From: a virus
Virus record (IMG/VR): IMGVR_UViG_3300042294_004161
Location: 1-64,000 of that record
DNA: 64,000 nucleotides
Direction: 5' to 3' (one strand)
Part shown: positions 293 through 59,713 of the stretch, piece after piece
Position numbering within the stretch: position 1 is the stretch's first letter
How the letters are laid out: each line of letters begins with the position of its first letter
The notes under the pieces: generated by a model
Told to the model about the DNA's origin: nothing
Databases searched by the model: none
Seen by the model: the letters and a program-made list of their open reading frames with translations, nothing else
Program-made: the position numbers and the translations under genes

Positions 293-552
293 ATCCATAT
301 ACCAATACTCAAGTAACTGACAAATATATTATTCGTGAATTTAATGAAAATATAGATCCTATTGAATTAAAATGGCATAGGGATTTAGAAGATCGTACAG
401 TAACTGTTTTAGAAGGTAATGGATGGTATTTTCAAAGAGATAATGAATTACCTGTGGAACTCAAAGAAGGAGTTCATATATTTATACCAAAATTAGAGTG
501 GCATAGGGTTATTAAAGGAACAACACCACTTAAAATAAAAATAGAAGAATGA
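289..552 (+). CDS. Small cupin-fold protein
   Basis: WHRD...E and HIFIPKLEWHRV resemble cupin motifs 1 and 2. Confidence 0.6.
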   Translation: MNPYTNTQVTDKYIIREFNENIDPIELKWHRDLEDRTVTVLEGNGWYFQRDNELPVELKEGVHIFIPKLEWHRVIKGTTPLKIKIEE

Positions 553-1100
553 AAATCATCCAACTTAGACAAATCATCAGAGAAGAATTACAGTCTTTGA
601 TATTGGAGAGATTTATTAACCTATTTAATAAAGAAGATATTAAACCATATATTCAAGATATATGGAACATAATGCAAAGAACATATGAACCTATAGGTGG
701 TTTTAAAACAGCAAATTCACCTGAAGAATTACTTAATAAAATTAATCTAGCCAAATTAGTTAGAAAAAATAACAAAATAGTAGCAGCTGCTTTATACACA
801 GACAAATATGGTCGTAAAGCAATAGCAAAAGGATCTGATGGATCAATAGATGGAATAAAAGCTATTAAACAAATATATAAAGAAGACGTAAAACTTAACA
901 GAGCTTGGGGTGAATTCTCAGGTAAAGCTGAAGATTTATTATTGAAATATGGTGGAGTACCTATCCCAAATGATATGGTAGAAGATATTTTAGATAAAGA
1001 AATCTTATCTAAAGATAAGGATGGATTCCATTATACAAGATTAATAAATGGTGAACCTATTCGCAAAATTATGATTGGAAGTTTGGATAAGCCCAAATAG
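549..1100 (+). CDS. Leader-bearing protein (putative internal head/cargo protein), body of unknown function
   Basis: N-terminal MKIIQLRQIIREELQSLILE matches leader of 5005, 54224, 54571, 54946, 55280, 56762. Confidence 0.6.
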   Translation: MKIIQLRQIIREELQSLILERFINLFNKEDIKPYIQDIWNIMQRTYEPIGGFKTANSPEELLNKINLAKLVRKNNKIVAAALYTDKYGRKAIAKGSDGSIDGIKAIKQIYKEDVKLNRAWGEFSGKAEDLLLKYGGVPIPNDMVEDILDKEILSKDKDGFHYTRLINGEPIRKIMIGSLDKPK

Positions 1101-4983: not shown

Positions 4984-5004
4984 TATTTATAACAAAATAT
5001 ACAC

Positions 5005-5454
5005 ATGAAAAAATCAGAATTAAAACAATTTATACGTGAAGAAATAATATCTACCCTTTCAGAAGCAGAACAAGGTATCATTCATACTAAAGATCAAAAT
5101 AAAGCAGTAGAACTTGCTAAAAAAGGATTAAATGTAAGTATTGACGAAAAGAAGAAATCTGAAGATGAAGATGAGGATGTAGAGGTAAAAGATGATTGGA
5201 ATAAAGTAGAAAAAGAAGATTCATTTGTTGAAAAAGAACCAACAGCTAAAGATCTTAAAAAAGGAGATAAAGTTACTAAGATGGCTGCTAAATTAGCTAT
5301 GGTTACTAAAGAAATGAAATCTGTAGTATCTCAATGGAAGAAAGCAGAAGGTAGTGAAAAAGATAGACTGTTAAATAGATTAAAAGAATTAACTAAAGTC
5401 AAAAAAGAATTAGATGCTTTTATCACTCCAACAATAGGTACAGATGAAGACTAA
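5005..5454 (+). CDS. Leader-bearing charged protein (putative internal head protein)
   Basis: MKKSELKQFIREEIISTLSE leader; late motif at 4983. Confidence 0.6.
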   Translation: MKKSELKQFIREEIISTLSEAEQGIIHTKDQNKAVELAKKGLNVSIDEKKKSEDEDEDVEVKDDWNKVEKEDSFVEKEPTAKDLKKGDKVTKMAAKLAMVTKEMKSVVSQWKKAEGSEKDRLLNRLKELTKVKKELDAFITPTIGTDED

Positions 5455-5456
5455 AT

Positions 5457-6032
5457 ATGAATTTATTTAATAACACAAAAAACATACTAATTTTAGTACT
5501 TGTCCTCATTATTATTTTAATGAGGACTTGTTCTACTACCCCATCCATCAAACCTAAAACAATCACTAAAACAACTATCGAATATATCCCTGTAACTGAT
5601 ACAGTTCCTGAATATATTCCTAAGTGGAGAGAGAAAATAGTTGTTCAAATAGATAGTTTTAAGGAACCAATTGATACTACTGAAATATTAAGTGACTATT
5701 ATAGCAAATATTACTATATAGATACATTAAAAGTAGATACATTTGGTTTTGTTCTAGTAAAAGATACAGTATCTCAAAACAAAATATCATCCCGTAATAT
5801 TGAATACAACATAAGTATACCTAAGATAACAATAGAAAAAACAACATTCATTAATGAACGAGAATTTTATGTAGGTCCTGGGATACAAGGTAGTACAAGA
5901 CAATTAGATTATATTGGGGGTGAGTTATATTTAAAAACAAAAACATCTCATCTATATGGAATTGGTGTTGGAATAAACAACAATCTACAACCTGTACTTA
6001 GAGGAGGAATGTATTGGAGGATAAACAAATGA
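5457..6032 (+). CDS. Membrane-anchored protein (possible lysis/spanin-like)
   Basis: N-terminal hydrophobic ILILVLVLIIIL followed by Cys; C-terminal amphipathic beta strands ending GGMYWRINK. Confidence 0.45.
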   Translation: MNLFNNTKNILILVLVLIIILMRTCSTTPSIKPKTITKTTIEYIPVTDTVPEYIPKWREKIVVQIDSFKEPIDTTEILSDYYSKYYYIDTLKVDTFGFVLVKDTVSQNKISSRNIEYNISIPKITIEKTTFINEREFYVGPGIQGSTRQLDYIGGELYLKTKTSHLYGIGVGINNNLQPVLRGGMYWRINK

Positions 6033-7597
6033 GCCAACCAGACTTAAAAGCAATAATTCGAGAAGAATATATGAAATGTGCAGAAGATCCTGCTCATTTT
6101 ATGAAGAAATATTGCAACATCCAACACCCTCAAAGAGGCCGTGTTTTATTTAATTTATACCCTTTCCAAGAAAAAACGCTACGCCTATTCCGAGATAACC
6201 CGTATTCTATCGTGTTAAAATCGCGTCAATTAGGCATTTCAACATTAGCTGCTGGGTATTCATTATGGTTAATGTTATTCCATAAAGATAAAAACGTACT
6301 ATGTATAGCTACTAAACAAGAAACAGCTAAAAACATGGTTACAAAAGTTAGATTTATGTTTGAAAGTTTACCTTCTTGGCTTAAAATACCACATGAAGAA
6401 AATAATAAACTAACTTTAAGATTAAATAATGGTTCTCAAATTAAAGCAACAGCCGCATCCTCAGATGCAGGTAGATCAGAAGCTGTATCTTTATTAATAG
6501 TGGATGAGGCTGCTTTTATTGAACAAATTGGAGAAATTTGGGCATCAGCCCAACAAACCCTAGCAACTGGTGGGGGTGCTATTGTATTATCTACTCCATA
6601 TGGTACTGGTAATTGGTTTCATCAATCTTGGGTAAAAGCAGAAAATAATGAAAACGATTTTTTACCTATAAAATTACCATGGTATGTTCACCCTGAAAGA
6701 GATGAGACTTGGAGAAAACGTCAAGATGAATTACTAGGTGATCCTAGATTAGCTGCCCAAGAATGTGATTGTGATTTTAATACCTCTGGTGATACTGTAT
6801 TCTATTCAGAATGGTTAGATTTTATAAAAGAAACAACTATACAAGATCCTATAGTACGTAGAGGAGCAGACCAAAACTTATGGGTTTGGGAACCAGCTGA
6901 TTATACTAGAGAATATATGGTAATAGCGGATGTTGCTAGAGGTGATGGTAAAGACTCATCTGCATGTCATATTATAGATATAGCAACAAACACACAAGTG
7001 GCTGAATATAAAGGTCAATTACCTCCTAAAGAATATGGTTATTTTTTAGTAGGCTTAGCATCAGAATATAATAATGCTTTACTAGTAATTGAAAATGCTT
7101 CTATAGGATGGGCCACATTAGATGCTGTTATAGAAAGAGGATATAGAAATTTATATTACTCACCTAAATCAGATCATCTAACTGCAGAATCTTACTTAAA
7201 CATATATGAGGGAAATTCAAATTTAACTCCTGGATTTACAATGTCTTTAAAAACAAGACCTTTAGTAGTTAATAAATTTAGAGAGTATATAGGAGATCGT
7301 TCAGTAACGATTCGTTCTAAAAGATTACTAGAAGAAATGAAAGTCTTTATATGGAAGAATGGTAGACCAGAAGCTCAAAGTGGGTATAATGATGATTTAG
7401 TAATGAGTTTTGGTATAGGAATGTATTTAAGAGACACATCTTTAAAATTCCAACAACAATCTCATGACATGACTAGAGCAACGCTTGGTAATATAACTAA
7501 GACTACGTATATTGGAGCTTACAACAATTCTAACACTCAAAATCCATACCTATTACAAACAGATAAAGGAATGGAAAATATTAGTTGGTTGTTGTAA
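6029..7597 (+). CDS. terL: Terminase large subunit (T4 gp17-like)
   Basis: LYPFQ, KSRQLGIS Walker A, LIVDEAAF Walker B, STPYG, ADVARG nuclease, NDDLVM; start moved to ATG 6029 (ATGA overlap). Confidence 0.95.
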   Translation: MSQPDLKAIIREEYMKCAEDPAHFMKKYCNIQHPQRGRVLFNLYPFQEKTLRLFRDNPYSIVLKSRQLGISTLAAGYSLWLMLFHKDKNVLCIATKQETAKNMVTKVRFMFESLPSWLKIPHEENNKLTLRLNNGSQIKATAASSDAGRSEAVSLLIVDEAAFIEQIGEIWASAQQTLATGGGAIVLSTPYGTGNWFHQSWVKAENNENDFLPIKLPWYVHPERDETWRKRQDELLGDPRLAAQECDCDFNTSGDTVFYSEWLDFIKETTIQDPIVRRGADQNLWVWEPADYTREYMVIADVARGDGKDSSACHIIDIATNTQVAEYKGQLPPKEYGYFLVGLASEYNNALLVIENASIGWATLDAVIERGYRNLYYSPKSDHLTAESYLNIYEGNSNLTPGFTMSLKTRPLVVNKFREYIGDRSVTIRSKRLLEEMKVFIWKNGRPEAQSGYNDDLVMSFGIGMYLRDTSLKFQQQSHDMTRATLGNITKTTYIGAYNNSNTQNPYLLQTDKGMENISWLL

Positions 7598-7621: not shown

Positions 7622-9514
7622 ATGGCAGATACCAATTTATTCCCCCGATTAAAAAGATTATTCTCAACAGACGTAATAATCAGAAATCAAGGTGGTGATA
7701 CACTAAAAGTAATGGATGTTGATTCAATCCAACGTTCAGGTGATATAGCTACAAATTCCTTAGTAGACAGGTACAATCGTTTATATTCCCCAGCAACTAC
7801 CTCATTATTAGGTTCTCAAATCAATATGAACTGGCAGTACTTACGTACTATGGTTTATTCAGACTATGATAATATGGATTATGATGCTATTGTAGCCTCA
7901 GCTTTAGATATTATCTCTGATGAGAGTACATTAAAAAATGATATGAATGAAGTATTACATATCAAAAGTTCAAATGAGGATATTCAACAAATCCTATATA
8001 ACTTATTTTATGATGTATTAAACATTGAATTTAACTTATGGTCTTGGATTCGTCAGATGTGTAAGTATGGTGATTTTTTCTTAAAGTTAGAGATTGCTGA
8101 AAAATTTGGTGTATATAATGTTATCCCATACACAGCATATCATATTGAAAGACAAGAAAATTATGATAAAGATCACCCAAATGCTGTAAGATTTAAATAT
8201 TCACCTGAAGGAGTATATGGTGGTGGTTCTGGATATTATGGTTCTCCTACTCTTAACACATATACAGACAATCAAAATGGCATATATTTTGATAATTATG
8301 AAATAGCTCACTTTAGATTATTAACAGATGTTAATTACTTACCTTATGGTCGTTCATATCTAGAACCAGCTCGTCGTATCTTTAAACAATATGTGTTAAT
8401 GGAAGATGCTATGTTAATTCATAGAATATCACGTAGCCCAGATAGACGTATATTTTATATTAATGTGGGTTCAATACCACCAAATGAAGTAGAAAACTTC
8501 ATGCAAAAAACAATCTCTACCATGAAACGTACCCCGTTAATGGATAGTAATACTGGTGAATATAATCTTAAGTATAATATGCAAAATTTACTTGAAGATT
8601 TTTATATTCCTGTAAGAGGTAATGACAGTGCCACTAAAATGGAAACTGCACCTGGTTTACAATATGATGGTATTAATGATGTAGAGTATTTAAGAGACAA
8701 ATTATTTGCTGCTCTTAAAGTACCTAAAGCATTCATGGGTTATGAAAAAGATTTATCTGGTAAGGCTACATTAGCTGCAGAAGATATTAGATTTGCCCGT
8801 ACAATTGATAGAATTCAACGTATAACATTATCAGAATTATATAAAATAGCATTAGTACATTTATATTCACAAGGTTATACAGGTGAAGAATTAACTAATT
8901 TTGAATTAGATTTAACAGGTCCTTCAATTATATATGATCAGGAAAAAATAGCTTTATTAACCCAAAAAGTTGATTTAGCTGCTAAAATCATGGAAACTCA
9001 ATTACTTCCTACAGACTGGATTTATGATAACATATTCAAATTCAGTGAGGAACAATATGATGAATATAGAGACATGATATTAGAAGATCAAAAACGTGCC
9101 TTTAGATATGCTCAAGTAAAAGAAGAAGGTAATGATCCTAAAATCACAGGTAAATCATATGGTACACCACATGATTTAGCCTCACTATATGGTAAAGGTA
9201 GAATGTATTCTGACCCAGAAAATGTACCTGTAGGATTTGGTGATGATGTAAAATTAGGTCGTCCTGAAGAAAGTCCAACAGATCGTAATACTCAAAATGA
9301 TAATTTTGGTAAAGATAGATTAGGGGCTAAAGGAATGAAAAATGATGATAATGAATCAGATTCTATTAATCCTAAATTTAAAGGTGGTTCACCATTAGCT
9401 TTAGAAGCTAAACAGGTTTATCTAAAAAATAAAAGTCTAATAGAAAGTTTAGTGAAAAACAAAACTGTAATTGCAGAAAGTTCACTATTAGATGAAAAAC
9501 AAATAAGAGAATAA
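7622..9514 (+). CDS. Portal protein (T4 gp20-like)
   Basis: MEDAMLIHRISRSPDRRIFYINVG, LEDFYIPVRG, LFAALKVPK; follows terminase. Confidence 0.93.
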   Translation: MADTNLFPRLKRLFSTDVIIRNQGGDTLKVMDVDSIQRSGDIATNSLVDRYNRLYSPATTSLLGSQINMNWQYLRTMVYSDYDNMDYDAIVASALDIISDESTLKNDMNEVLHIKSSNEDIQQILYNLFYDVLNIEFNLWSWIRQMCKYGDFFLKLEIAEKFGVYNVIPYTAYHIERQENYDKDHPNAVRFKYSPEGVYGGGSGYYGSPTLNTYTDNQNGIYFDNYEIAHFRLLTDVNYLPYGRSYLEPARRIFKQYVLMEDAMLIHRISRSPDRRIFYINVGSIPPNEVENFMQKTISTMKRTPLMDSNTGEYNLKYNMQNLLEDFYIPVRGNDSATKMETAPGLQYDGINDVEYLRDKLFAALKVPKAFMGYEKDLSGKATLAAEDIRFARTIDRIQRITLSELYKIALVHLYSQGYTGEELTNFELDLTGPSIIYDQEKIALLTQKVDLAAKIMETQLLPTDWIYDNIFKFSEEQYDEYRDMILEDQKRAFRYAQVKEEGNDPKITGKSYGTPHDLASLYGKGRMYSDPENVPVGFGDDVKLGRPEESPTDRNTQNDNFGKDRLGAKGMKNDDNESDSINPKFKGGSPLALEAKQVYLKNKSLIESLVKNKTVIAESSLLDEKQIRE

Positions 9515-11200: not shown

Positions 11201-12079
11201 ATGGAAAAGACAATACAACAACAATACGACCTTATTAAAGAAGGCAAAGGAAACAAAGACGACTTTTTAAAAAGTGCTCGTCGTGTATTCCCTGAACTAA
11301 TAACTCCAGGAAATGACTATAATACTGCTGTTCATATATTAAAAAGCAAAAGCATATTATCTGAAGGTACTAGTACTGTAACAGCAAATAAAAATTGGTT
11401 CAAAATATTTGAAACAAATTTAAAAGAAGCTGTTGGTGTTAAAGACACTAAAGAATATGGTGACCAAAACACATTTGAAAAAATTGACAAAGATGTTAAA
11501 GCTGCTTTAGATCATCAATTTGACAATAAAGATCCTAAAAACATAGATAACGTTTATGGTCAATCATTCTTAATCGGGTATTTAGCTGAAATGGATGATC
11601 CAAAAAATGCTAAAAAAACAGTTGACGAATTAAAAGCTATTGTATTAAAAAACATGGCTAAAGATATTAACTATTATGCTAAGAATGGAATGTTTGGTGT
11701 TAAAGGTATTGGTTTAGAAACATCAAAAGTATCAAAACCACTTAAAGGTAAATTTAAATCAAGTGGATATGGTGATTTAAAAGAAAATCAATCAACAAAT
11801 GAAGGTATTGGAATGTTTAATGATCCTATGGGATTTAAAAAACCTGAATTAAGTAATATAAATAAAATATTTACTAAAGAATATAAAGGGGAGGGAATGT
11901 ATGATATTTTTAAAAATGGAAAAAAAGTTAAATCTATTGAAGGTGAAGGCAATGCTAATGCTTGGATAAATACTGAAAAAAGAAAATTAAATGACATGAG
12001 TGAGGAAAAATTGGATTCTTTAAAAGAAAACAAACTCCGCTCAGTAATTCGTAATTTAATAAACGAAGAATTAAACTAA
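11201..12079 (+). CDS. Putative prohead core protein
   Basis: Directly upstream of protease; many (L/I)-x-E sites; C-terminal LRSVIRNLINEE resembles the shared leader helix. Confidence 0.5.
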   Translation: MEKTIQQQYDLIKEGKGNKDDFLKSARRVFPELITPGNDYNTAVHILKSKSILSEGTSTVTANKNWFKIFETNLKEAVGVKDTKEYGDQNTFEKIDKDVKAALDHQFDNKDPKNIDNVYGQSFLIGYLAEMDDPKNAKKTVDELKAIVLKNMAKDINYYAKNGMFGVKGIGLETSKVSKPLKGKFKSSGYGDLKENQSTNEGIGMFNDPMGFKKPELSNINKIFTKEYKGEGMYDIFKNGKKVKSIEGEGNANAWINTEKRKLNDMSEEKLDSLKENKLRSVIRNLINEELN

Positions 12080-12685
12080 ATGAAACAAGTACTAATTGAA
12101 ACTATACCATTTAATGTATCTCCCATACAATTAACTGAAGGTTTAAAAGCACCTTCTGGTAATCCTATGGTAGAGGGTGTACTAGCCACAGCTGAAGTTA
12201 AAAATGGTAATGGTAGATATTATCCTAAAGAATTATGGGAGAGAGAAATGGATAAATACTCCCAAATCATTAAAGAAAATAGAGCTATGGGTGAATTAGA
12301 CCATCCTGATTCTTCTATAATCAATTTAAAAAATGTATCTCATGTTATTAGAGAAGTAAGATGGGATGGAGATAAAGTACTTGGTAAAATAGAAATATTA
12401 CCTACTTCATCTGGAAATATATTAAAAGCACTCATAGAAAATAATGTTACAGTAGGTGTGTCTTCTCGTGGAATGGGAAGTTTAAAACAAATTGGTGAAA
12501 CATTAGAAGTACAAGATGATTTTGAATTATTATGTTGGGATTTCGTTTCTACACCTTCAAACCCAGGCTCATATATGCACTTGGTTAGAGAAGGTAAAGA
12601 ACATAACATTGAAGATAAATTCGCAAAAGTAAATTCTTTATTAATGGAAATACTTTGCGCTAATGGGACTTGTCCTATTATTTAA
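12080..12685 (+). CDS. Prohead core protease (T4 gp21-like)
   Basis: NGNGRYYP, GELDHP, VSH, GVSSRGMGS, DFVSTPS. Confidence 0.95.
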   Translation: MKQVLIETIPFNVSPIQLTEGLKAPSGNPMVEGVLATAEVKNGNGRYYPKELWEREMDKYSQIIKENRAMGELDHPDSSIINLKNVSHVIREVRWDGDKVLGKIEILPTSSGNILKALIENNVTVGVSSRGMGSLKQIGETLEVQDDFELLCWDFVSTPSNPGSYMHLVREGKEHNIEDKFAKVNSLLMEILCANGTCPII

Positions 12686-12913: not shown

Positions 12914-14017
12914 ATGAACAGAAGTTTGCTAACCGAAGCAATCGCTGATGCAAAAGCCGTAAAAGAAACCGCTATTGCAAATGCAAAAGCCGCTCTAGAA
13001 GAAGCATTCACACCGTATTTGAAAGAAAAGTTAGCTGCAAAGTTAGCTGAAATGGATAATATGGATGAAGCTGATGATATGATGGCAGAGAAAAAGGAAG
13101 AAATGGAAGAAAATTTCGACATGGATGAATCTAAAGAAATGGATGAAGCAACTCACATGGATGAGGCTGAAGACATGGAAGAAGGTAAAGATATGGAAGA
13201 AATGGACTTAGATGAACTCCTTAGAGAACTAGAAGGAATGGAAGAAGGTGAAAAAGAAGAAATGATGGAAGGTGAAGAGGACTTAATCAACGATCCCAAA
13301 GGACCCACAGCACATGGTAATGTGGCTGAAGAGGAAGATATGGAAATGGGCGAAGAAGATGAAGAAATGGATCTGGAAAACATGACTGAAGAAGACCTTA
13401 AATCATTCATTGAAAGTGTAATCGCTGATATGGTAGCCGCAGGTGAACTGGAAGGTGAAGTAGAAGGCGAAATGGGTGATGATGAAATAGAAATGGAAGA
13501 TGAAGAAGAAGTTGACATCGAAGAATTATTAGCCGAATTAATGACTGAAAGAAAGAAATATGGTGGTAATAAAGGAGATGTACCTGCTAAAAAACGTGGT
13601 GATAAAAAAGACACAGCAGAAGAAGAAGGAGTTGAAGACTACAAGAAGAAAGCCAAGAAAATGGAAGAACAACTTGCAGAAGCTAATAAAGCAATCAACA
13701 CTATCAGAGCTGAACTTAACGAAGTTAATTTATTAAACGCTAAGTTACTTTACACTAACAAAATCTTCAAAGCCAGAACATTATCAGAATCACAAAAAGT
13801 GAAAGTATTGGAAGCTTTTGATAAAGCAGCAACAGTAAAAGAAGTTAAACTTGTATTTGAAACACTATCTAATAATGCTAAAGAAAAGAAAACTTCTATC
13901 AACGAATCAATGTTCGGAGGTGCTTCTAAAGCATCAGGTGTTGCTCCAACAAAGAAACCAATACTTGAAGTAAACGACCAATTCTCCAGATGGCAGAAAT
14001 TGGCCGGTATTAAGTAA
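12914..14017 (+). CDS. Prohead scaffolding protein (gp22-like position)
   Basis: Very acidic coiled-coil protein between protease and capsid; start moved to ATG 12914. Confidence 0.8.
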   Translation: MNRSLLTEAIADAKAVKETAIANAKAALEEAFTPYLKEKLAAKLAEMDNMDEADDMMAEKKEEMEENFDMDESKEMDEATHMDEAEDMEEGKDMEEMDLDELLRELEGMEEGEKEEMMEGEEDLINDPKGPTAHGNVAEEEDMEMGEEDEEMDLENMTEEDLKSFIESVIADMVAAGELEGEVEGEMGDDEIEMEDEEEVDIEELLAELMTERKKYGGNKGDVPAKKRGDKKDTAEEEGVEDYKKKAKKMEEQLAEANKAINTIRAELNEVNLLNAKLLYTNKIFKARTLSESQKVKVLEAFDKAATVKEVKLVFETLSNNAKEKKTSINESMFGGASKASGVAPTKKPILEVNDQFSRWQKLAGIK

Positions 14018-14053: not shown

Positions 14054-15763
14054 ATGTCACAAGTACAACAATTATTAGAAAGCGCTGCAGGTTCTTGGAA
14101 GAACATGCAAAGCGATGCTGCTAGATTAGCTGGCAAGTGGGCTAAAACAGGCTTACTTGAAAGTTTAGGTGAAATCGAAAAGAATAACATGTCTATTCTA
14201 TTAGAAAACCAAGCTAAGCAGTTAGTAACAGAAGCAAACACTATCTCTTCAAATTCATCTTTCGTATCAAACGGACAAGGTGAGAACTGGGCTGGTATTG
14301 CTCTTCCTTTAGTTAGAAAAGTATTCGGTACTATCGTAGCTAAAGAGTTTGTTTCAGTTCAACCAATGAACATGCCTTCAGGCCTGGTGTTCTTCTTAGA
14401 TTTCCAATATGGTAATTCTAAGTCACCATTTACTGCAGGTTCTTCATTATATGGTAACAGAAACACTGCCTCAAGATTCCCATTCTCTACTCCAGAAGCA
14501 GTTGGCGGTTTATATGGTGGTCCAGAAGGTCGTTTTACATATGCAACTAACCAATTCTCTGGTTCAGCTACAATCACTACAGCTTCAATTTCATCAGCTT
14601 CATTTGCTGACGTAAATTTTGATTCTGCTTTCTCAGCATCAGTAGCTGCTGGTACAATTAAGGAAATTATTTTCCCTGATGCTAGCACAAACTTAGTAGC
14701 ATTTGACCAAGATGCAGTACGTGGATTTATCTTAACTTCAGGTTCAACTTTAGCCGTTGAGGATTGTTTAAACCAATTCACTACTTACAACTACACTAAC
14801 AACACTATTACTTTCTACGTATCAGCTTCAACTGCTGAAATCGCAAACACTGGTCCATACGTTGTAACTTATCAGAAAGCCGGTAACCAAGAAGGTATTC
14901 CAGTATTCTCAGGTGGTAACAACTTCAGTGGTTCAGGTAGAGGTGATTTTGAAGCTGAAGGTGCTTTCTCAGTACCAAACGCTGCTTCAACAACAGACAT
15001 CGTTATTCCTGAAATCAATGTTAGAATGCAATCATCTGCCATCACTGCAAAAACCAAGAAATTGAAAGCAGTATGGACGCCAGAATTTGCTCAAGACTTA
15101 GCTGCTTACCAGAACATTGACGCAGAAGCTGAATTAACAAACATCATGAGTGAGTATATTTCAATGGAAATTGATTTAGAAATCTTAGATATGTTAATCG
15201 AAGATGCTGCTGCTGAAACTGAATACTGGTCAGCTATTAACAACCAAGTAATCAATGCTACTGGTACTGCATTTGAAAACAATGCTTCAGCATTCTACAA
15301 CACTCAAGGTCAGTGGTTCCAAACTTTAGGTACTAAAATCCAAAAAGTATCTAACAAGATCCACCAGTTAACCTTAAGAGGTGGTGCTAATTTCTTAATC
15401 ACTTCACCAACTGTAGCAACTATCCTTGAGTCAATCCCAGGATTTGCTTCTACAAACAACGGTGAAGCTGATCAAATGGAATATGCATTCGGTGTTCAGA
15501 AAATTGGTTCAGTTAACGGTCGTTACAAGGTTTACAAGAACCCATACATGACTGAAAACTTGATCTTAATGGGATACAAAGGTTCACAATTCCTAGAAAC
15601 AGGTGCTGTATTTGCTCCTTATATTCCGTTGATCATGACTCCATTAGTGTACGATCCAGAAACCTTCACACCAAGAAAAGGTCTCTTAACCCGTTACGCT
15701 AAGAAAATGCTTCGTCCGGAATTCTATGGCAAAATTTATATCAATGGTTTAAACACCATCTAA
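14054..15763 (+). CDS. Major capsid protein (T4 gp23-like) with Ser/Thr-rich insertion
   Basis: LLENQ, VSVQPMNMPSGLVF, KLKAVWTPEFAQDL, DAEAELTNI, FAPYIPL, TFTPRKGLLTRYA. Confidence 0.96.
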   Translation: MSQVQQLLESAAGSWKNMQSDAARLAGKWAKTGLLESLGEIEKNNMSILLENQAKQLVTEANTISSNSSFVSNGQGENWAGIALPLVRKVFGTIVAKEFVSVQPMNMPSGLVFFLDFQYGNSKSPFTAGSSLYGNRNTASRFPFSTPEAVGGLYGGPEGRFTYATNQFSGSATITTASISSASFADVNFDSAFSASVAAGTIKEIIFPDASTNLVAFDQDAVRGFILTSGSTLAVEDCLNQFTTYNYTNNTITFYVSASTAEIANTGPYVVTYQKAGNQEGIPVFSGGNNFSGSGRGDFEAEGAFSVPNAASTTDIVIPEINVRMQSSAITAKTKKLKAVWTPEFAQDLAAYQNIDAEAELTNIMSEYISMEIDLEILDMLIEDAAAETEYWSAINNQVINATGTAFENNASAFYNTQGQWFQTLGTKIQKVSNKIHQLTLRGGANFLITSPTVATILESIPGFASTNNGEADQMEYAFGVQKIGSVNGRYKVYKNPYMTENLILMGYKGSQFLETGAVFAPYIPLIMTPLVYDPETFTPRKGLLTRYAKKMLRPEFYGKIYINGLNTI

Positions 15764-53503: not shown

Positions 53504-54166
53504 ATGTATTACCCTAAATCACAAATAAAAACTAATTTATACACTAATGGGGATGAGTATATTGTTGAATTAACTCAAACACCATATATAGGATATTATT
53601 ACTTAACAAGTACAGGAAGAGCATTTACTGGAAGAACACCTGATGATAGACCAAATCAAGAATTAATTAAAGTTGAACCGGTAACAAAAGATGAAGGTGA
53701 TTCTTCAACAGTAATAAGACCCTCAACAGCTACTATTTTTTCATCTCATAATCCGGGAGCAATAGATGCAGTTACTTCTTTAGATTATAATTCAGCTTTA
53801 AATTATGCCCAATTAAAAAATATAAACGTATATAACCCTCCAATTAAAATTTTACCTTATTACTCCCCAACCCTCCCAACCCCACAAGACTACCAAAACG
53901 GAGAATTTCAAAGATATTTTTGTAAAAAAACAAACGAAATAAAATATATTGAAATAAATAAGGAACAATTTGATAAATTAGTAGCCCAAGATCCTCAAAT
54001 TGAATTCTCACTATATCAACCATTTACTATAACATGGATTATATCAGGTGATAAAGATACAGTAGCTAAAACTAATAGAAATATAGTAGAATTAGCATCA
54101 TTTAGACAAAAATTACCTAGATTAGCTGATTATCTTCGATTTGATTACACTAAGTATTTAAAATAA
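53504..54166 (+). CDS. Hypothetical baseplate-region protein
   Basis: NLYTNGDEY..YIGYY; PTPQDYQNGEFQRYF. Confidence 0.6.
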   Translation: MYYPKSQIKTNLYTNGDEYIVELTQTPYIGYYYLTSTGRAFTGRTPDDRPNQELIKVEPVTKDEGDSSTVIRPSTATIFSSHNPGAIDAVTSLDYNSALNYAQLKNINVYNPPIKILPYYSPTLPTPQDYQNGEFQRYFCKKTNEIKYIEINKEQFDKLVAQDPQIEFSLYQPFTITWIISGDKDTVAKTNRNIVELASFRQKLPRLADYLRFDYTKYLK

Positions 54167-54273
54167 TTTGGTAATCTTACTTTTCTTTCATATATTTATC
54201 ATAAATAATTAAAAAACATAAACATGAAAGTAACACAACTACGTCAATTAATCAGAGAAGAAATTCAATCTGT
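54155..54273 (+). repeat. 119-bp exact direct repeat A, copy 1 (upstream gene end, promoters and leader codons)
   Basis: Identical to 56693..56811. Confidence 0.92.
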
Positions 54274-54559
54274 GGTTAAAGAAGCTAAAATCAAAAATCA
54301 ATATGTCATTAAAGATGAAGAAGAAAGTGATGAAGATTTTGATTTTTATGTAATTGATAAAAAGAAAGCATTTGAATATCTGAAACAATTTGATAAAAGA
54401 GGAAGTGTAAATGCTAAACAATTCATTAAGGATGATGAGGGTTGGGGTGAATTTGAACAATATTTAGAAGATGTTGAAAAAATGTCAGATAAACAGTTAG
54501 AAAAAGCAATGCGTGAAGAAATGAGTTATTATTTCTTTAGCGAACCAGATGGTATTTAA
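54224..54559 (+). CDS. Leader-bearing acidic protein (putative internal head cargo)
   Basis: MKVTQLRQLIREEIQSVVKE leader. Confidence 0.65.
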   Translation: MKVTQLRQLIREEIQSVVKEAKIKNQYVIKDEEESDEDFDFYVIDKKKAFEYLKQFDKRGSVNAKQFIKDDEGWGEFEQYLEDVEKMSDKQLEKAMREEMSYYFFSEPDGI

Positions 54560-54570
54560 AATATAAAGGC

Positions 54571-54933
54571 ATGAAAATTACTCAGCTACGTCAATTAATC
54601 AGAGAAGAAATTCAATCTGTAGTTAAAGAAGATAAAATTCATATAAAAGTAATTAATAAAGGCTTAAATAAATTTGGAGCAGAACAAATGAATAAAGCTT
54701 TTAAAAGTAATAGAGAAAAATATCCTGAAGCTATTGATGATTACTTTTTTAAAGTTGGAGATAAAATAGGTAAACCTAATAAAGTAATTAAACAACCTAA
54801 ACTATTTAATAGCAACCCAGGCAAAACTAGTATGGGATTATATCATGTTCATAGTGTAGACCAAGGAATAATTGAAATACCATTAGAATGGCTAGATTAT
54901 GATACTAAAACATTTAAAATTGTAGAAATTTAA
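54571..54933 (+). CDS. Leader-bearing basic protein (putative internal head cargo)
   Basis: MKITQLRQLIREEIQSVVKE leader; unrelated body. Confidence 0.65.
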   Translation: MKITQLRQLIREEIQSVVKEDKIHIKVINKGLNKFGAEQMNKAFKSNREKYPEAIDDYFFKVGDKIGKPNKVIKQPKLFNSNPGKTSMGLYHVHSVDQGIIEIPLEWLDYDTKTFKIVEI

Positions 54934-54945
54934 ATAATTAAAATA

Positions 54946-55275
54946 ATGAAAGTAAGACAACTTAGACAAATTATTAGAGAAGAAATTCAATCTGTGATGA
55001 AAGAACAAGAAGCTATTAAAATTACTCCTGAACAAAAAGCAGCATTTTTAGATAGGATTAAAGGATATGCTGAAGATGAAGGAGCAGATAGTGCTTTTTT
55101 TGAAGCAGGTAATATATTAGCTCGTGTACTTACTGATGATGAAGCTGAATTTATAGAAGATGTTGAAGATTTTGGATATAATGCCCAAGAAGTTGAAGAT
55201 TATGCTCAAGATTTAGTAGGTTCTTTGGATTTAGAATTCGATTATGACGATAATGATTACGACGATGATTTCTAA
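54946..55275 (+). CDS. Leader-bearing acidic protein (putative internal head cargo)
   Basis: MKVRQLRQIIREEIQSVMKE leader; body paralogous to the N-half of the next gene. Confidence 0.65.
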   Translation: MKVRQLRQIIREEIQSVMKEQEAIKITPEQKAAFLDRIKGYAEDEGADSAFFEAGNILARVLTDDEAEFIEDVEDFGYNAQEVEDYAQDLVGSLDLEFDYDDNDYDDDF

Positions 55276-55279
55276 TCAT

Positions 55280-56101
55280 ATGAAAAGAAAGCAGTTTAAT
55301 CAACTACGCCAACTAATCAAAGAAGAAATTAAGTTAGCAATAAAAGAGCAAGAAGCTATTAAAATTACTCCTGAACAAAAGAAAGAATTTCTTAGATTAG
55401 TTAAAAGAACTATGGGAGAATTATATCTCAACACAGGAAAAGAAGTGGTGAATGATGGGGAAGTAGATCGTCTTTTAGTTTCAGTTTTAACTAATGATGA
55501 AACCGATTGGTTAGAAGATATAGATCAATACGGATATGACCCAGATGCTGTAAAAAAATACGCTGAAGAACTAGTATTACTTAGATTCCCAGACCCTCTA
55601 CCTCCACCTCCTAAGGACTATGAAAATATTATACAACAATATATTCAAAATGGAAATAAAGGTGATTTAGATTTAATGGGTTATGATAAACCTACTTTAC
55701 CTAATAATTTTCCTTCTGAAATAGGAGGAAATTTGTATTTAAATGATTCATCTATAAAATCTTTACCTGATGGATTAACAGTACATGGTAACTTAGGTTT
55801 AAGTAAATCATCTATAAAATCTTTACCTAATAGACTAACAGTACATGGTACTTTGAGTTTAGCAGGTTTACCTATAAAATCATTACCTAAAGATTTAGTA
55901 GTAAAACAAAGAAAAAGAAACCGATTAGCTGATACTATATGGTTAACAAATACCCCAATTAGTAAAAAATATACAAAAGAAGAACTAGAAGCTTTATCTC
56001 CCGGAATTAAAGGTCTTCAATGGCTTGCAGGAGTATGGAATGAAGAAGATATTAAAGATCATAATTTAAAGAGAAAACCTGACGGAACTTTTTATAGATA
56101 A
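55280..56101 (+). CDS. Leader-bearing protein with leucine-rich repeats
   Basis: Start moved to ATG 55280; QLRQLIKEEIKLAIKE; three 20-aa GxLxLxxxxIKSLPxxLxV repeats. Confidence 0.7.
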   Translation: MKRKQFNQLRQLIKEEIKLAIKEQEAIKITPEQKKEFLRLVKRTMGELYLNTGKEVVNDGEVDRLLVSVLTNDETDWLEDIDQYGYDPDAVKKYAEELVLLRFPDPLPPPPKDYENIIQQYIQNGNKGDLDLMGYDKPTLPNNFPSEIGGNLYLNDSSIKSLPDGLTVHGNLGLSKSSIKSLPNRLTVHGTLSLAGLPIKSLPKDLVVKQRKRNRLADTIWLTNTPISKKYTKEELEALSPGIKGLQWLAGVWNEEDIKDHNLKRKPDGTFYR

Positions 56102-56114
56102 AACAACATATTTT

Positions 56115-56153
56115 AAAGTAAAGCTTGGGAAACCAGGCTTTCTTTATTATATT
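56115..56153 (+). repeat. 39-bp exact direct repeat B, copy 1 (terminator-like hairpin fused with TTGG-N19-TATATT promoter)
   Basis: Identical to 57039..57077; AAAGCTTGG-GAAA-CCAGGCTTT hairpin. Confidence 0.9.
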
Positions 56154-56159
56154 TACATT

Positions 56160-56405
56160 ATGAAAATAATAATTAATAGAATCCTCAATTTAGATGGAAC
56201 ATGGCAAAGCTATAAAATTTCATCTCCTAATGCTTATACAAAACCAACTTGGAAAGAATTAGGTAAACAATTTAACACATTAAATGATATAATTGATTTT
56301 TATAAATTACAAAATGTAAGAGAACTAGGTGTAAAATATTCTTATGATAATAAGGATAGAAAATATGGAATTGAAGAACATGAAGCAATTTTACCATTAA
56401 TTTAA
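56160..56405 (+). CDS. Hypothetical protein
   Basis: ORF with its own promoter motif and downstream hairpin. Confidence 0.55.
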   Translation: MKIIINRILNLDGTWQSYKISSPNAYTKPTWKELGKQFNTLNDIIDFYKLQNVRELGVKYSYDNKDRKYGIEEHEAILPLI

Positions 56406-56425
56406 TAATTTTAAATTTTTTAATT

Positions 56426-56450
56426 AAAGCTTAATTATTTAAGCTTTTTT
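56426..56450 (+). terminator. Probable terminator
   Basis: AAAGCTTAA-TTAT-TTAAGCTTT plus Ts. Confidence 0.6.
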
Positions 56451-56479
56451 GTTATATCATATTAAATAATAAATAATTT

Positions 56480-56704
56480 ATGAATTATTATACAAGACTT
56501 TTATATAAAGATAAAATGCATCCTGAAATTTATAATTCAAATATTCCTATAGACCAAAAATTATTTCTTCAAAATCAATTGGAGAAGTTTGGAGGAGATT
56601 TTGATAAACTTCTAGAAGATATGGAAAAATATGCTATACTTACTGATGTAGAAGATTATGAAAATGCAGCTAAGATTAGAGATTATAGAAAATATTTAAA
56701 ATAA
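56480..56704 (+). CDS. Small protein with UvrB/UvrC (UVR)-like motif
   Basis: LLEDMEKYA...EDYENAAKIRD. Confidence 0.65.
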   Translation: MNYYTRLLYKDKMHPEIYNSNIPIDQKLFLQNQLEKFGGDFDKLLEDMEKYAILTDVEDYENAAKIRDYRKYLK

Positions 56705-56811
56705 TTTGGTAATCTTACTTTTCTTTCATATATTTATCATAAATAATTAAAAAACATAAACATGAAAGTAACACAACTACGTCAATTAATCAGAGAAGAA
56801 ATTCAATCTGT
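56693..56811 (+). repeat. 119-bp exact direct repeat A, copy 2
   Basis: Identical to 54155..54273. Confidence 0.92.
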
Positions 56812-57022
56812 AAAGAAAACATCCATAAATGAAAATATGACCTCAGAATATTGGAGTATAATGGTTGAAAATCAACCCGAAGATGTAATTAAGATTTTAG
56901 TTGATTTAACTAATGGTAAACTATCTTATCGTGACTTTTTAGAATCTACAGAAGCTGATATATATGATTCCTTTAGAGATGAAATGGGAGAAGATGAAGA
57001 TGATGAGTTTGATGAAGATTAA
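56762..57022 (+). CDS. Leader-bearing acidic protein (putative internal head cargo)
   Basis: MKVTQLRQLIREEIQSVKKTSINE leader. Confidence 0.65.
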   Translation: MKVTQLRQLIREEIQSVKKTSINENMTSEYWSIMVENQPEDVIKILVDLTNGKLSYRDFLESTEADIYDSFRDEMGEDEDDEFDED

Positions 57023-57038
57023 TAAATAAAAACCATTA

Positions 57039-57077
57039 AAAGTAAAGCTTGGGAAACCAGGCTTTCTTTATTATATT
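57039..57077 (+). repeat. 39-bp exact direct repeat B, copy 2
   Basis: Identical to 56115..56153. Confidence 0.9.
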
Positions 57078-57103
57078 ATATGTCAATAAAAGGTTATAGA
57101 TAA

Positions 57104-58384
57104 ATGTTTTGGCTAATAGAAAAAGACTCACAAATTGAATATTTAATAAATAAAAAATATGAAGAAGTATTTGTTGAGGTAATCTCTTATAATGATAATT
57201 TACATCCAATCCTCAACGATGTGTCTTTAATATATTATAAACCGTTAAAATCCAATAAAGGGTTTATGTTATGTATTGACCATAGTGAATCATTAAATGC
57301 AGATAAAACACTAATAGACACGTTATTAACACAAACATCTCGTATATGGGTACGAGATAAGAAAAAAACATTATATTATTTACCTATTAAAAATTTATAT
57401 GATGTAAATTTAATTGATACACCATATGAACCAGCTTTAACACCCACTCATATTTATTTTCAAAACAAATATCCTGAGTATAAGAAAATAAATAAATTAA
57501 TTCCTATATCAAAACATTATGAATTATGTGAGGGTATATATAATAATGTAAAACATAATTTTGATAAAGAATTACCATCTTATTTTGAGTTTTATAACAA
57601 TAAAGCAACACTTGCTTTTTTTGGAATAGAAAAAAATGGAATAACAATAAACGAAAATATATTTTATGAACATTTTAAACCAAATCAATCTTTTTATTCT
57701 ATCCAAGATTCAAAGATTTATACCAATTACAACTTATATACAACTACACGCAGACCCAGCAACGCTTTTAATGGGGTTAACTTTGCCGCATTAAATAAAG
57801 AAAATGGTTCTAGAAAAAGTTTTATCCCACAAAACCACAGATTTGTTGAAATTGATATAAGTGCTTATCACCCTCACCTAACAGCCAATTTAGTTGGTTA
57901 TGATTTTGGAGATCAAGATGTACACCAAGTATTTGCAGATATGTATGGTGTCTCATATGATGAATCTAAAAATCTTACATTTAAACAGTTATATGGTGGA
58001 GTATTCAGAGAATATGAAAACCTAGAATATTTCCAACTCATAAAACAATACATTAATAATATCTGGGAGGAGTTCAATAACTCAGGTAAAGTTATTACAC
58101 CAATTTCAGGTTATTGCTTTGAAAAAAGTAAATTAGATAATATGAACCCTCAAAAATTATTTAATTACATATTACAAAACTATGAGAGTTCAAATAATGT
58201 TCATATATTGATGGACATTCATAAATTATTAAAAGGAAAAAATACTAAGTTAATTTTATACACATATGATTCAGTATTAATAGATTATGACGATGAAGAA
58301 AAATTATTTAATAGTATAAAAAACATATTTAAAAAACACAATTTAAAAATAAAGGTTAAAAATGGAACCAACTACGACTTTTGA
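57104..58384 (+). CDS. polA: Compact family A DNA polymerase
   Basis: TTTRRPSN..NFAALNK, motif A EIDISAYHP, motif B KNLTFKQLYGG, NYILQ, motif C LYTYDSVLID. Confidence 0.8.
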   Translation: MFWLIEKDSQIEYLINKKYEEVFVEVISYNDNLHPILNDVSLIYYKPLKSNKGFMLCIDHSESLNADKTLIDTLLTQTSRIWVRDKKKTLYYLPIKNLYDVNLIDTPYEPALTPTHIYFQNKYPEYKKINKLIPISKHYELCEGIYNNVKHNFDKELPSYFEFYNNKATLAFFGIEKNGITINENIFYEHFKPNQSFYSIQDSKIYTNYNLYTTTRRPSNAFNGVNFAALNKENGSRKSFIPQNHRFVEIDISAYHPHLTANLVGYDFGDQDVHQVFADMYGVSYDESKNLTFKQLYGGVFREYENLEYFQLIKQYINNIWEEFNNSGKVITPISGYCFEKSKLDNMNPQKLFNYILQNYESSNNVHILMDIHKLLKGKNTKLILYTYDSVLIDYDDEEKLFNSIKNIFKKHNLKIKVKNGTNYDF

Positions 58385-58820
58385 TAATTACTATAATATT
58401 TATTGGGAGAACACCCAATTAAATACTAAAGATTTGAATAACCGACTGTTATGCACGTTTGTATCTGAGGATACATTAGATGATATGATATATAGTATAG
58501 AGAATGCTTACTCTATCATGTACAATAAAATGTTTGTACTTTTTATTAAAAGCACAGGTGAATATGCTATTACCTATAATGTAGACCAAGGTAATGTTAG
58601 TAACATTCCTAAAAATACTATATTAGTTCACCGTAAAAAAGAGTTTAATGTTTTATATAGTTTAAATGGTTTAAACGAAATAATTAAGACGTTAAATGGA
58701 GGTGTAGTAGATCCGTCATTTAAAATAAATTGGCAACATTATCAAAATAGTATTCTATTAACTCAAGAAGGTCAATTAAAACAGCTAAATACAAAAATTC
58801 ACAAGATTGTTGAATTATAA
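58362..58820 (+). CDS. Hypothetical protein coupled to the polymerase gene
   Basis: Overlaps the polymerase stop; LVHRKKE..LYSLNGLNE. Confidence 0.65.
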   Translation: MEPTTTFDNYYNIYWENTQLNTKDLNNRLLCTFVSEDTLDDMIYSIENAYSIMYNKMFVLFIKSTGEYAITYNVDQGNVSNIPKNTILVHRKKEFNVLYSLNGLNEIIKTLNGGVVDPSFKINWQHYQNSILLTQEGQLKQLNTKIHKIVEL

Positions 58821-58879
58821 TTTGGCTAAGCCAAAATAAGTTATTATATTATAGTTAAACTAAAAATTAAAACACAGTT

Positions 58880-59713
58880 ATGGATTTAAACGAAATGAAA
58901 AACCGACTGGCATCTATCCAGTCAAAATCAACAGGGAAAGGTGGTAACAACCAAAAATCAGTTTTTTGGAAACCATCTGTAGGTAAACAAGTTATCCGAG
59001 TTGTACCTAATAAGTACAATAAGAAAAACCCATTTACAGAATTGTATTTTCACTATGGTATTGGAAAAAACACTATGGTGTCTCCATCAAATTGGGGAGA
59101 AAAAGACCCGATCATCGAGTTTGCAAAACAACTACGGGGTACTAGTGACAAAGAAAATTGGAGATTAGCTAAGAAGCTTGATCCTAAAATGAGGGTTTTT
59201 GTACCTATTATTGTACGAGGTGAAGAAAGTGAAGGAGTACGTTTGTGGCAGTTTGGTAAAGAACTTTATATGGATTTTCTTAATCTAGCTGATAATGAAG
59301 ATGTAGGTGACTTTACAGATGTTCATGAAGGTAGAGATATTACATTAACTACTGTAGGACCAGAAGTAACAGGAACAAGTTACAACAAAACAACAATCAT
59401 GCCTAAAGTTAAAATTACAGCTTTAGCAGATGATAAGAAAACTATTGAAGCATTGCTTGAAAATCAACCAAATCCTAAAGAAGTATTTAAGAAATACTCA
59501 TATGAGGAAATGAAGCAATCTTTACAAGAATGGTTAGCTCCTGAAGAAGATGAAAGTGATACTCCAGTTGAAGAAGATGAAACCCCAGTTACCAAACAAT
59601 CTACAGGTACTGAGTATGCTCTAAAAACACCTGCAGCAAAAGTAAGCAAAGCAGAAAAATTTGATGCTTTGTTTGATGATGAAGAGGCTGGGGACCTTCC
59701 TTGGGAAAAATAA
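58880..59713 (+). CDS. Single-stranded DNA-binding protein (T4 gp32-like)
   Basis: FWKPSVG..IRVVP, DPIIE, LWQFGK, DFTDVHEGRDI, acidic tail ending DLPW. Confidence 0.8.
   Translation: MDLNEMKNRLASIQSKSTGKGGNNQKSVFWKPSVGKQVIRVVPNKYNKKNPFTELYFHYGIGKNTMVSPSNWGEKDPIIEFAKQLRGTSDKENWRLAKKLDPKMRVFVPIIVRGEESEGVRLWQFGKELYMDFLNLADNEDVGDFTDVHEGRDITLTTVGPEVTGTSYNKTTIMPKVKITALADDKKTIEALLENQPNPKEVFKKYSYEEMKQSLQEWLAPEEDESDTPVEEDETPVTKQSTGTEYALKTPAAKVSKAEKFDALFDDEEAGDLPWEK

Follow-up and report, generated by a model that had tools for sequence, protein, structure and literature searches.

The first 64 kb of the 99,130-base IMG/VR virus record IMGVR_UViG_3300042294_004161 (hereafter the window) encode seven proteins that open with one and the same short peptide, designated leader A, which probably acts as a T4-style capsid-targeting tag that is clipped off its cargo. 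Sequence comparison across public data demonstrates that leader A is selected at the peptide level, can front cargos from hundreds of families and co-occurs with a T4-type protease, scaffold and capsid protein. Its place can also be taken, at a Glu site, by a tag that repeats the scaffold tail. The original prediction for this stretch had proposed a distinct plug-and-play packaging tag. Its modularity on unrelated bodies, its T4-type cut motif and its association with T4-type head genes all stand; the word 'distinct' is fair, while the concept is that of the known T4 capsid-targeting sequence (CTS).

Leader A is a 20-residue amphipathic peptide of the form MKxxQLRQLIREEIQSVxKE, or a diverged version of it. 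The seven genes that it opens (549, 5005, 54224, 54571, 54946, 55280 and 56762) all start on the + strand exactly where the original prediction had placed them, and the motif Glu is residue 20 in five of the seven, as had also been claimed (the two offset cases are given in Table 1). A six-frame fuzzy search with the leader core QLRQLIREEIQS, allowing at most four mismatches, recovered only these seven N-termini in the window and in the whole record, and the leader hidden Markov model (HMM) matched just the same seven genes in the record. An all-against-all comparison of N-termini (first 28 residues, 116 genes) put the 21 pairs formed by the seven leaders in 21 of the top 23 places; a pair of signal peptides accounted for one of the other two places and a last-place tie for the other. 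Beyond the leader, a seven-way alignment keeps little except an N-domain common to 54946 and 55280, and Pfam and PHROGs searches with the seven leader proteins returned no family, in agreement with the earlier description of mostly unrelated bodies. At the nucleotide level, the invariant residues are spelled by differing codons (Leu6 by CTA, CTT or TTA; Arg7 by AGA, CGC or CGT; Ile10 by three codons and Arg11 by two), with the Leu and Arg variation crossing codon families, which argues that the peptide is under selection and is not merely a DNA repeat. Among phage records, megablast found no match to the leader array, and a tblastn search with a 30-residue leader protein produced a single weak match.

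Protein databases place leader A far beyond this record. A leader-A profile (30 columns, built from 14 leaders) matched 872 protein clusters at E≤0.001 in a collection of 1.84 billion representative proteins. In 136 of the best 150 of the 872 clusters, the leader begins no later than residue nine; the general consensus reads MKKS-[EQ]-LRQ-[IL]-I-[KR]-EEISKVL-[KN]-E. The end of the leader is strongly constrained in this set: of 148 sequences, 133 have Glu at position 20, 137 have L, M, I or V at position 18 and 121 have N or K at position 19, and the residue after the leader is small or polar. The conservation at positions 18 and 19 is not merely an echo of the profile, since Asn19 and Leu18 are not the main residues in the query. 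The cargos are highly diverse, with the 124 of at least 40 residues in the best 150 clusters falling into 95 families, almost none of which has a Pfam family. One database cargo is an ART-PolyVal ADP-ribosyltransferase that starts at residue 24.

A degenerate DNA pattern for the leader core identified at least 119 stretches in IMG/VR. In the fetched loci, which held 85 matches, a Met codon lies four or six codons upstream in 78 and a Val codon occupies that place in 5 more; the five Val cases are likely GTG starts. A set of 26 apparently 'internal' leader copies was considered as true internal tags and rejected: about 20 keep their own Met and three lie at the very end of the protein, so that these copies probably represent adjoining genes read as one, or cut contigs. 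A recombinant database protein (P0201) joins leader A and the first 13 residues of cargo 549 to an unrelated body, which indicates that exchange points do not always fall precisely at the Glu site.

Related contigs carry two further leaders, B (core FDLKKYLxENK) and C (core RMQKLAGI), which replace leader A on the same cargos. Orthologues of cargo 54224 bear leader A, B or C, and in 21 of 22 of them the first cargo residue comes immediately after an [LIV]-x-Glu site and one further residue, which close the leader or an upstream domain. A second cargo family bears all three leaders, and the cargo 549 family bears A or B. Leader C duplicates the scaffold's C-terminal tail. About 55 head modules retain this tail, as does Flavobacterium phage vB_FspM_immuto, the nearest cultured phage, whose capsid protein is 55% identical to that of the record. 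The record itself contains leader A only, with the tail motif confined to its scaffold. In a complete 171,684-base relative, unbiased clustering of N-termini recovered 5 B, 8 A-like and 4 C leaders, or 17 of 249 genes, and a single 7-kb contig carries five A, one B and one C. All three leaders also occur in immuto: gp080, gp094, gp095 and gp072 bear A, gp092 and gp069 bear B, and gp083 bears C. Three of the immuto leader genes, gp069 and gp072 among them, are encoded inside the head module. This interchange of leaders is the strongest indirect evidence that leader A would serve as a head tag. A different layout was observed in three relatives (L020:2403, L022:3245 and L023:5605), where cargo 54224 forms the C-terminal half of a 238-243-residue protein; an internal leader-C motif lies directly ahead of the cargo with Leu-x-Glu sites flanking it, in a polyprotein-like arrangement.

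The head module of the record supplies the machinery that such a tag would use. The gp21-like protease named in the original prediction is borne out as a Peptidase_S77 member (Table 1), and its His, Ser and Asp occupy the positions aligned to those of T4 gp21 (chain 5JBL), which indicates a conserved triad. Of ten long leader-A contigs, nine encode Peptidase_S77, a count not set against a base rate, and the tenth is only 28% complete. The scaffold and the capsid protein follow the cut-site logic of the leader, the former at Ile350-x-Glu352 and the latter at Val58-x-Glu60. In the scaffold, Ile350 and Glu352 are invariant among 46 sequences and stand directly ahead of the 15-residue tail. In the capsid protein, Leu57, Val58 and Glu60 are invariant among 35 sequences of the group, with a variable linker after Glu60, and the corresponding place in immuto reads Val-Ser-Glu|Ala. 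The position of this site matches that of the propeptide cut in T4.

These observations are consistent with the following assembly route. The amphipathic leader helix would dock a newly made protein on the scaffolding core or on the inner shell of the assembling prohead, and the S77 prohead protease would then cut after Glu20, at the hydrophobic-[K/N]-Glu site, and may additionally cut after the invariant Ile10-x-Glu12. The mature cargo would remain in the head and would probably exit with the DNA at infection. An injected-effector role for the cargos is speculation, as is the possible role of the acidic ones as DNA mimics.

Among the cargos of the record, that of gene 549 has a confident structure prediction. 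Its AlphaFold2 model (predicted local distance difference test score 88.6) places a helix at residues 3-19, corresponding to the leader, ahead of a strand at residues 20-25. GNAT enzymes make up all of the top structural matches of the cargo, with Z reaching 10.4 and alignments that begin near residue 19. Since the GNAT fold starts where the leader stops, the leader appears to be an appendage on a complete domain, and homologues of cargo 549 retain the Leu-x-Glu|Arg junction. Cargo 55280 contains three 20-residue leucine-rich repeat (LRR)-like repeats (55727-55906). With respect to charge, cargos 54224, 54946 and 56762 are very acidic and cargos 549 and 54571 are basic. An ESM Atlas search with cargo 54224 returned no match. 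Counts of cut sites inside the cargos are mixed, [LIVM]-x-Glu being slightly depleted (z -2.5) and [LIVM]-[KN]-Glu slightly enriched (z +2.5). Relatives L014, L016 and G001 carry a leader-bearing gene at the position equivalent to gene 5005.

Several results weigh against a T4-style targeting role for leader A. The leader-A profile has no match in the cultured cyanophages and pelagiphage Syn9, S-PM2, S-WAM2, DSL-LC02 and HTVC008M, and no proteomically studied cultured phage with leader A was found. In profile-profile comparison, leader A has no match to the capsid protein and a non-significant one to the scaffold (E 0.33 over 6 columns). Gene 5005 is the only leader gene with strong late-promoter support, and the promoter-like motif is not significantly enriched at leader genes relative to all genes in the record or in a complete relative (p about 0.13). 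Finally, several cargos are extremely acidic, whereas the internal proteins of T4 are basic, and the acidic cargos could be expendable core fillers instead of injected effectors.

The profile-profile comparisons with the scaffold and capsid protein also leave unsupported an earlier claim of similar helices in a core protein (12035-12070) and in the scaffold (13397-13423); both stretches are present in the sequence, and neither gives a significant leader match. The leader-A HMM does not match the scaffold tail either. Leader B has no match to the capsid protein, and its comparison with the scaffold (E 0.016, probability 3%, on an MDLDELLRELE island) is suggestive only. A complex prediction that paired the leader alignment with the capsid protein and scaffold alignments scored 0.01, which counts neither way on binding.

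A rival idea is that the leader does target the capsid, but that its cargos are accessory parts of the core or scaffold which maturation would degrade or expel. Very acidic cargos, three of the seven, resemble the scaffold in this respect; in some relatives leader genes are interspersed among those for the portal, protease and scaffold; and the T4 core proteins gp67 and gp68 are likewise cleaved (PMC5694885). Some cargos, however, are folded enzymes or binding domains (GNAT, LRR-like, ART-PolyVal), which would make little sense as filler, and the roughly 95 unrelated families in the top matches suggest a fast-changing arsenal. A core-component role for the cargos is rather unlikely.

It is unlikely, too, that the leader helix serves another purpose, such as oligomerisation, attachment to a host factor or to another virion part (tail or baseplate, for example), or help with folding or solubility, with the terminal Glu motif being incidental. 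An amphipathic helix could pack on many partners, and the array is located at the end of the tail/baseplate module. This explanation nevertheless leaves unaccounted for the 90% conserved hydrophobic-[K/N]-Glu at the leader-cargo boundary, the swapping with a copy of the scaffold tail and the link to S77.

A leader recognized by a modifying enzyme or a host protease, in the manner of a degron or of the leaders of ribosomally synthesized and post-translationally modified peptides (RiPPs), might draw on the radical-SAM-type queuosine genes present elsewhere in the record (assigned by N-terminal sequence only). It is made very improbable by the cargos, which are folded domains and not short peptides, by the swapping with the scaffold tail, which points to the head, and by the lack of any neighbor common to the three leader loci (549, 5005 and 54224-57022), whose neighbors were not all family-searched. 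Conservation at the DNA or RNA level, in which a cassette of promoter, start and first codons would spread by gene conversion for strong expression and the peptide would have no role, fits the 156-nt and 86-nt repeats, which span upstream DNA plus leader, and the identical terminators that bracket the units, but it can hardly be sustained when the invariant residues use different codons, genes 549 and 5005 have a common peptide but not common upstream DNA, and 872 clusters from many phages retain the peptide.

In the array DNA, the two longer repeat copies at 54143-54298 and 56681-56836 point, from their sequences, to recent copying at the DNA level, and because the array locus (54143-57077) is bracketed by promoter-leader and terminator repeats, recombination could exchange cargo cassettes. 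Two small leaderless genes (56160-56405 and 56480-56704) lie between two leader units, after the first terminator-like hairpin. The insertion points of leader-cargo genes differ among phages: in this record (54224-58880) they lie upstream of a 426-aa gene, in relatives L007-L013 between genes of 152 aa and 277 aa, and in L014 and L016 near the terminase. Judged by these positions, cargos move between hot spots.

At least 13 structural genes have a promoter-like core, TATTTATA, on the + strand 12-36 nt ahead of them. The sequence AATATTTATAA, also on the + strand and 12-36 nt ahead of structural starts, has 13 sites in the window and is a candidate late promoter of the phage group; it is the reverse complement of the T4 late-promoter core. 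A promoter weight matrix was built from twelve structural-gene sites and used to rank sites over the whole record. The original prediction had reported late-type motifs before the leader genes, and the copies at 479, 4984, 54193 and 56731 are indeed present, but the only strong one is that preceding gene 5005. The copies before 54224 and 56762 are weak (rank 28 in the record), and the copy at 479, 70 nt before gene 549, ranks 20.

Table 1. Leader genes, array elements, promoter-like motifs and head genes in the window.
Feature	Position	Strand	Remarks
Gene 549	549..1100	+	183 aa; leader residues 1-20 ending Ile-Leu-Glu; GNAT-fold acyltransferase-like cargo
Gene 5005	5005..5454	+	149 aa; diverged leader ending Leu-Ser-Glu20; charged cargo; just upstream of terminase region
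Gene 54224	54224..54559	+	111 aa; acidic cargo, mature isoelectric point (pI) about 4.5
Gene 54571	54571..54933	+	120 aa; basic cargo, mature pI about 9.3
Gene 54946	54946..55275	+	109 aa; very acidic cargo, net charge -24; N-domain common with gene 55280
Gene 55280	55280..56101	+	273 aa; leader shifted by 3 residues (Glu23)
Gene 56762	56762..57022	+	86 aa; very acidic cargo; candidate cut site Ile-Asn-Glu, residues 22-24
Repeat copy 1	54143..54298	+	Upstream region, start codon and leader; 90% identical to 56681-56836
Repeat copy 2	56681..56836	+	Upstream region, start codon and leader
Terminator-like hairpin	56120..56141	+	Closes four-gene leader array; identical to 57044-57065
Terminator-like hairpin	57044..57065	+	After gene 56762
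TATTTATA, perfect copy	4984..4991	+	Before gene 5005; rank 9 in record
TATTTATA, one-mismatch copy	54193..54200	+	31 nt before gene 54224; twin at 56731
AATATTTATAA, example sites	4030, 7598, 9526, 11189, 18127, 21306, 30751, 35291, 40772, 43892, 44958, 47676	+	Candidate late promoter
Large terminase	6014-7597		Head module of record
Portal_T4	7622-9514		Head module; family match
Prohead protease, Peptidase_S77 (T4 gp21 type)	12080..12685	+	96.5 bits; presumed leader-removing enzyme
gp22-like acidic scaffold	12914..14017	+	Invariant Ile350-x-Glu352, then conserved 15-residue tail (13970-14014)
Major capsid protein, Gp23 family	14054..15763	+	Predicted propeptide 14054-14233, ending at Val58-x-Glu60

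The record has 31% G+C, is estimated to be 59% complete and encodes nearly all of its genes on the + strand. A host among the Flavobacteriia fits both the kinship with immuto and the several proteins with Bacteroidota-style signal peptides encoded beyond the window (66520-72500). The gene upstream of the protease (11201-12079) varies from 183 to 593 residues among relatives, with several unrelated C-termini, and ends in the helix singled out by the original prediction only in the record and in relative L059. The N-terminus of the terminase (6029-6100) contains the leader-core-like sequence DLKAIIREEY, which is kept in relatives as the terminase N-terminus; this likeness is probably a coincidence of helix composition.

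A bolder extension of the targeting role is that in T4-like aquatic phages the three leaders form an interchangeable address code, in which each copies a conserved assembly segment of the scaffold, so that the cargo would enter the head posing as scaffold and more than 800 families would be packaged and injected. Leader C is plainly a copy of the scaffold tail; there are hints that B copies the MDLDELLRELE island and A a DLKSFIESVI island. Such a code is a long shot as a whole; if it were true, acyl- and ADP-ribosyl-transferases would be among the proteins that are pre-made, packaged and injected. The selection of proteins by T4-type heads lacks a mechanism, in that the T4 CTS works while its receptor is not known. 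With three distinct interchangeable leaders, one of which copies the scaffold tail, the receptor question narrows to what the tail binds and whether A and B bind there. The leader profile also provides a sequence handle for listing candidate packaged proteins of uncultured phages by the hundred, and early-acting host-takeover or counter-defence enzymes may be among them. Because the cultured relative immuto, whose host is Flavobacterium sp. LMO8, bears all three leaders, the idea is open to bench testing.

The closest known system is that of phage T4. Its internal proteins carry propeptides of 10-19 residues, which direct them to the scaffolding core before being cut away (PMC9026906; PMC5694885), with gp21 cleaving after Glu at ITE, LTE and LIE sites (PMC9026906; PMC5694885), and among T-even phages the internal proteins vary while the targeting sequence alone is conserved (PMC3012670; PMC9026906). 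Like the T4 CTS, which is borne by IPI, IPII, IPIII and Alt and removed by gp21, leader A is a short putative N-terminal propeptide on unrelated proteins, ends in Ile/Leu-x-Glu and accompanies a variable set of cargos, and the protease, scaffold and capsid protein of the record are likewise of the gp21, gp22 and gp23 types. Aligned by eye with the T4 CTS (PMC8442874) using a 2-residue gap, leader A shares 5 of 10 residues (M, K, Q, I and E), a stretch too short for statistics; under this alignment, Ile10 and Glu12 of leader A fall on T4 processing residues 8 and 10. The ART-PolyVal database cargo recalls Alt, a packaged enzyme of T4. Unlike the 10-residue T4 CTS, leader A has 20 residues, another sequence and possibly two cut sites, and it coexists in genomes with two more leader classes that are interchangeable with it on one cargo. 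Leader-A cargos also differ in including acidic proteins, and leader A is known from sequence only. No description of capsid-targeting leaders in aquatic T4-like phages was found in the literature searched. It is fair to regard the leader-A tag, its cargo families and the swapping of A, B and C as undescribed, and the underlying concept as the known capsid-targeting sequence of T4.

Three other systems offer partial parallels. The scaffold-tail mimic tag of relatives (the RMQKLAG class, that is, leader C) belongs to the same phage group and shares the cargos, the Glu junction and the clip-off logic of leader A, but unlike that tag leader A does not reproduce the tail of the scaffold. The ejection proteins of the giant phages phiKZ, 201phi2-1 and SPN3US are internal to the head, are processed after Glu by related (S80) proteases and include paralogues with common N-termini (PMC5694885). 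Their phiKZ-type propeptides are mostly longer than 100 residues and are cut at (S/A/G)-x-Glu, whereas leader A is short and portable, with a hydrophobic P3 residue. Encapsulin cargo-loading peptides are also short and portable and send diverse cargo inside an HK97-fold shell, as is proposed here for leader A; they differ from the proposed tag in that they are usually C-terminal and are not cleaved, and neither a scaffold nor a protease is involved.

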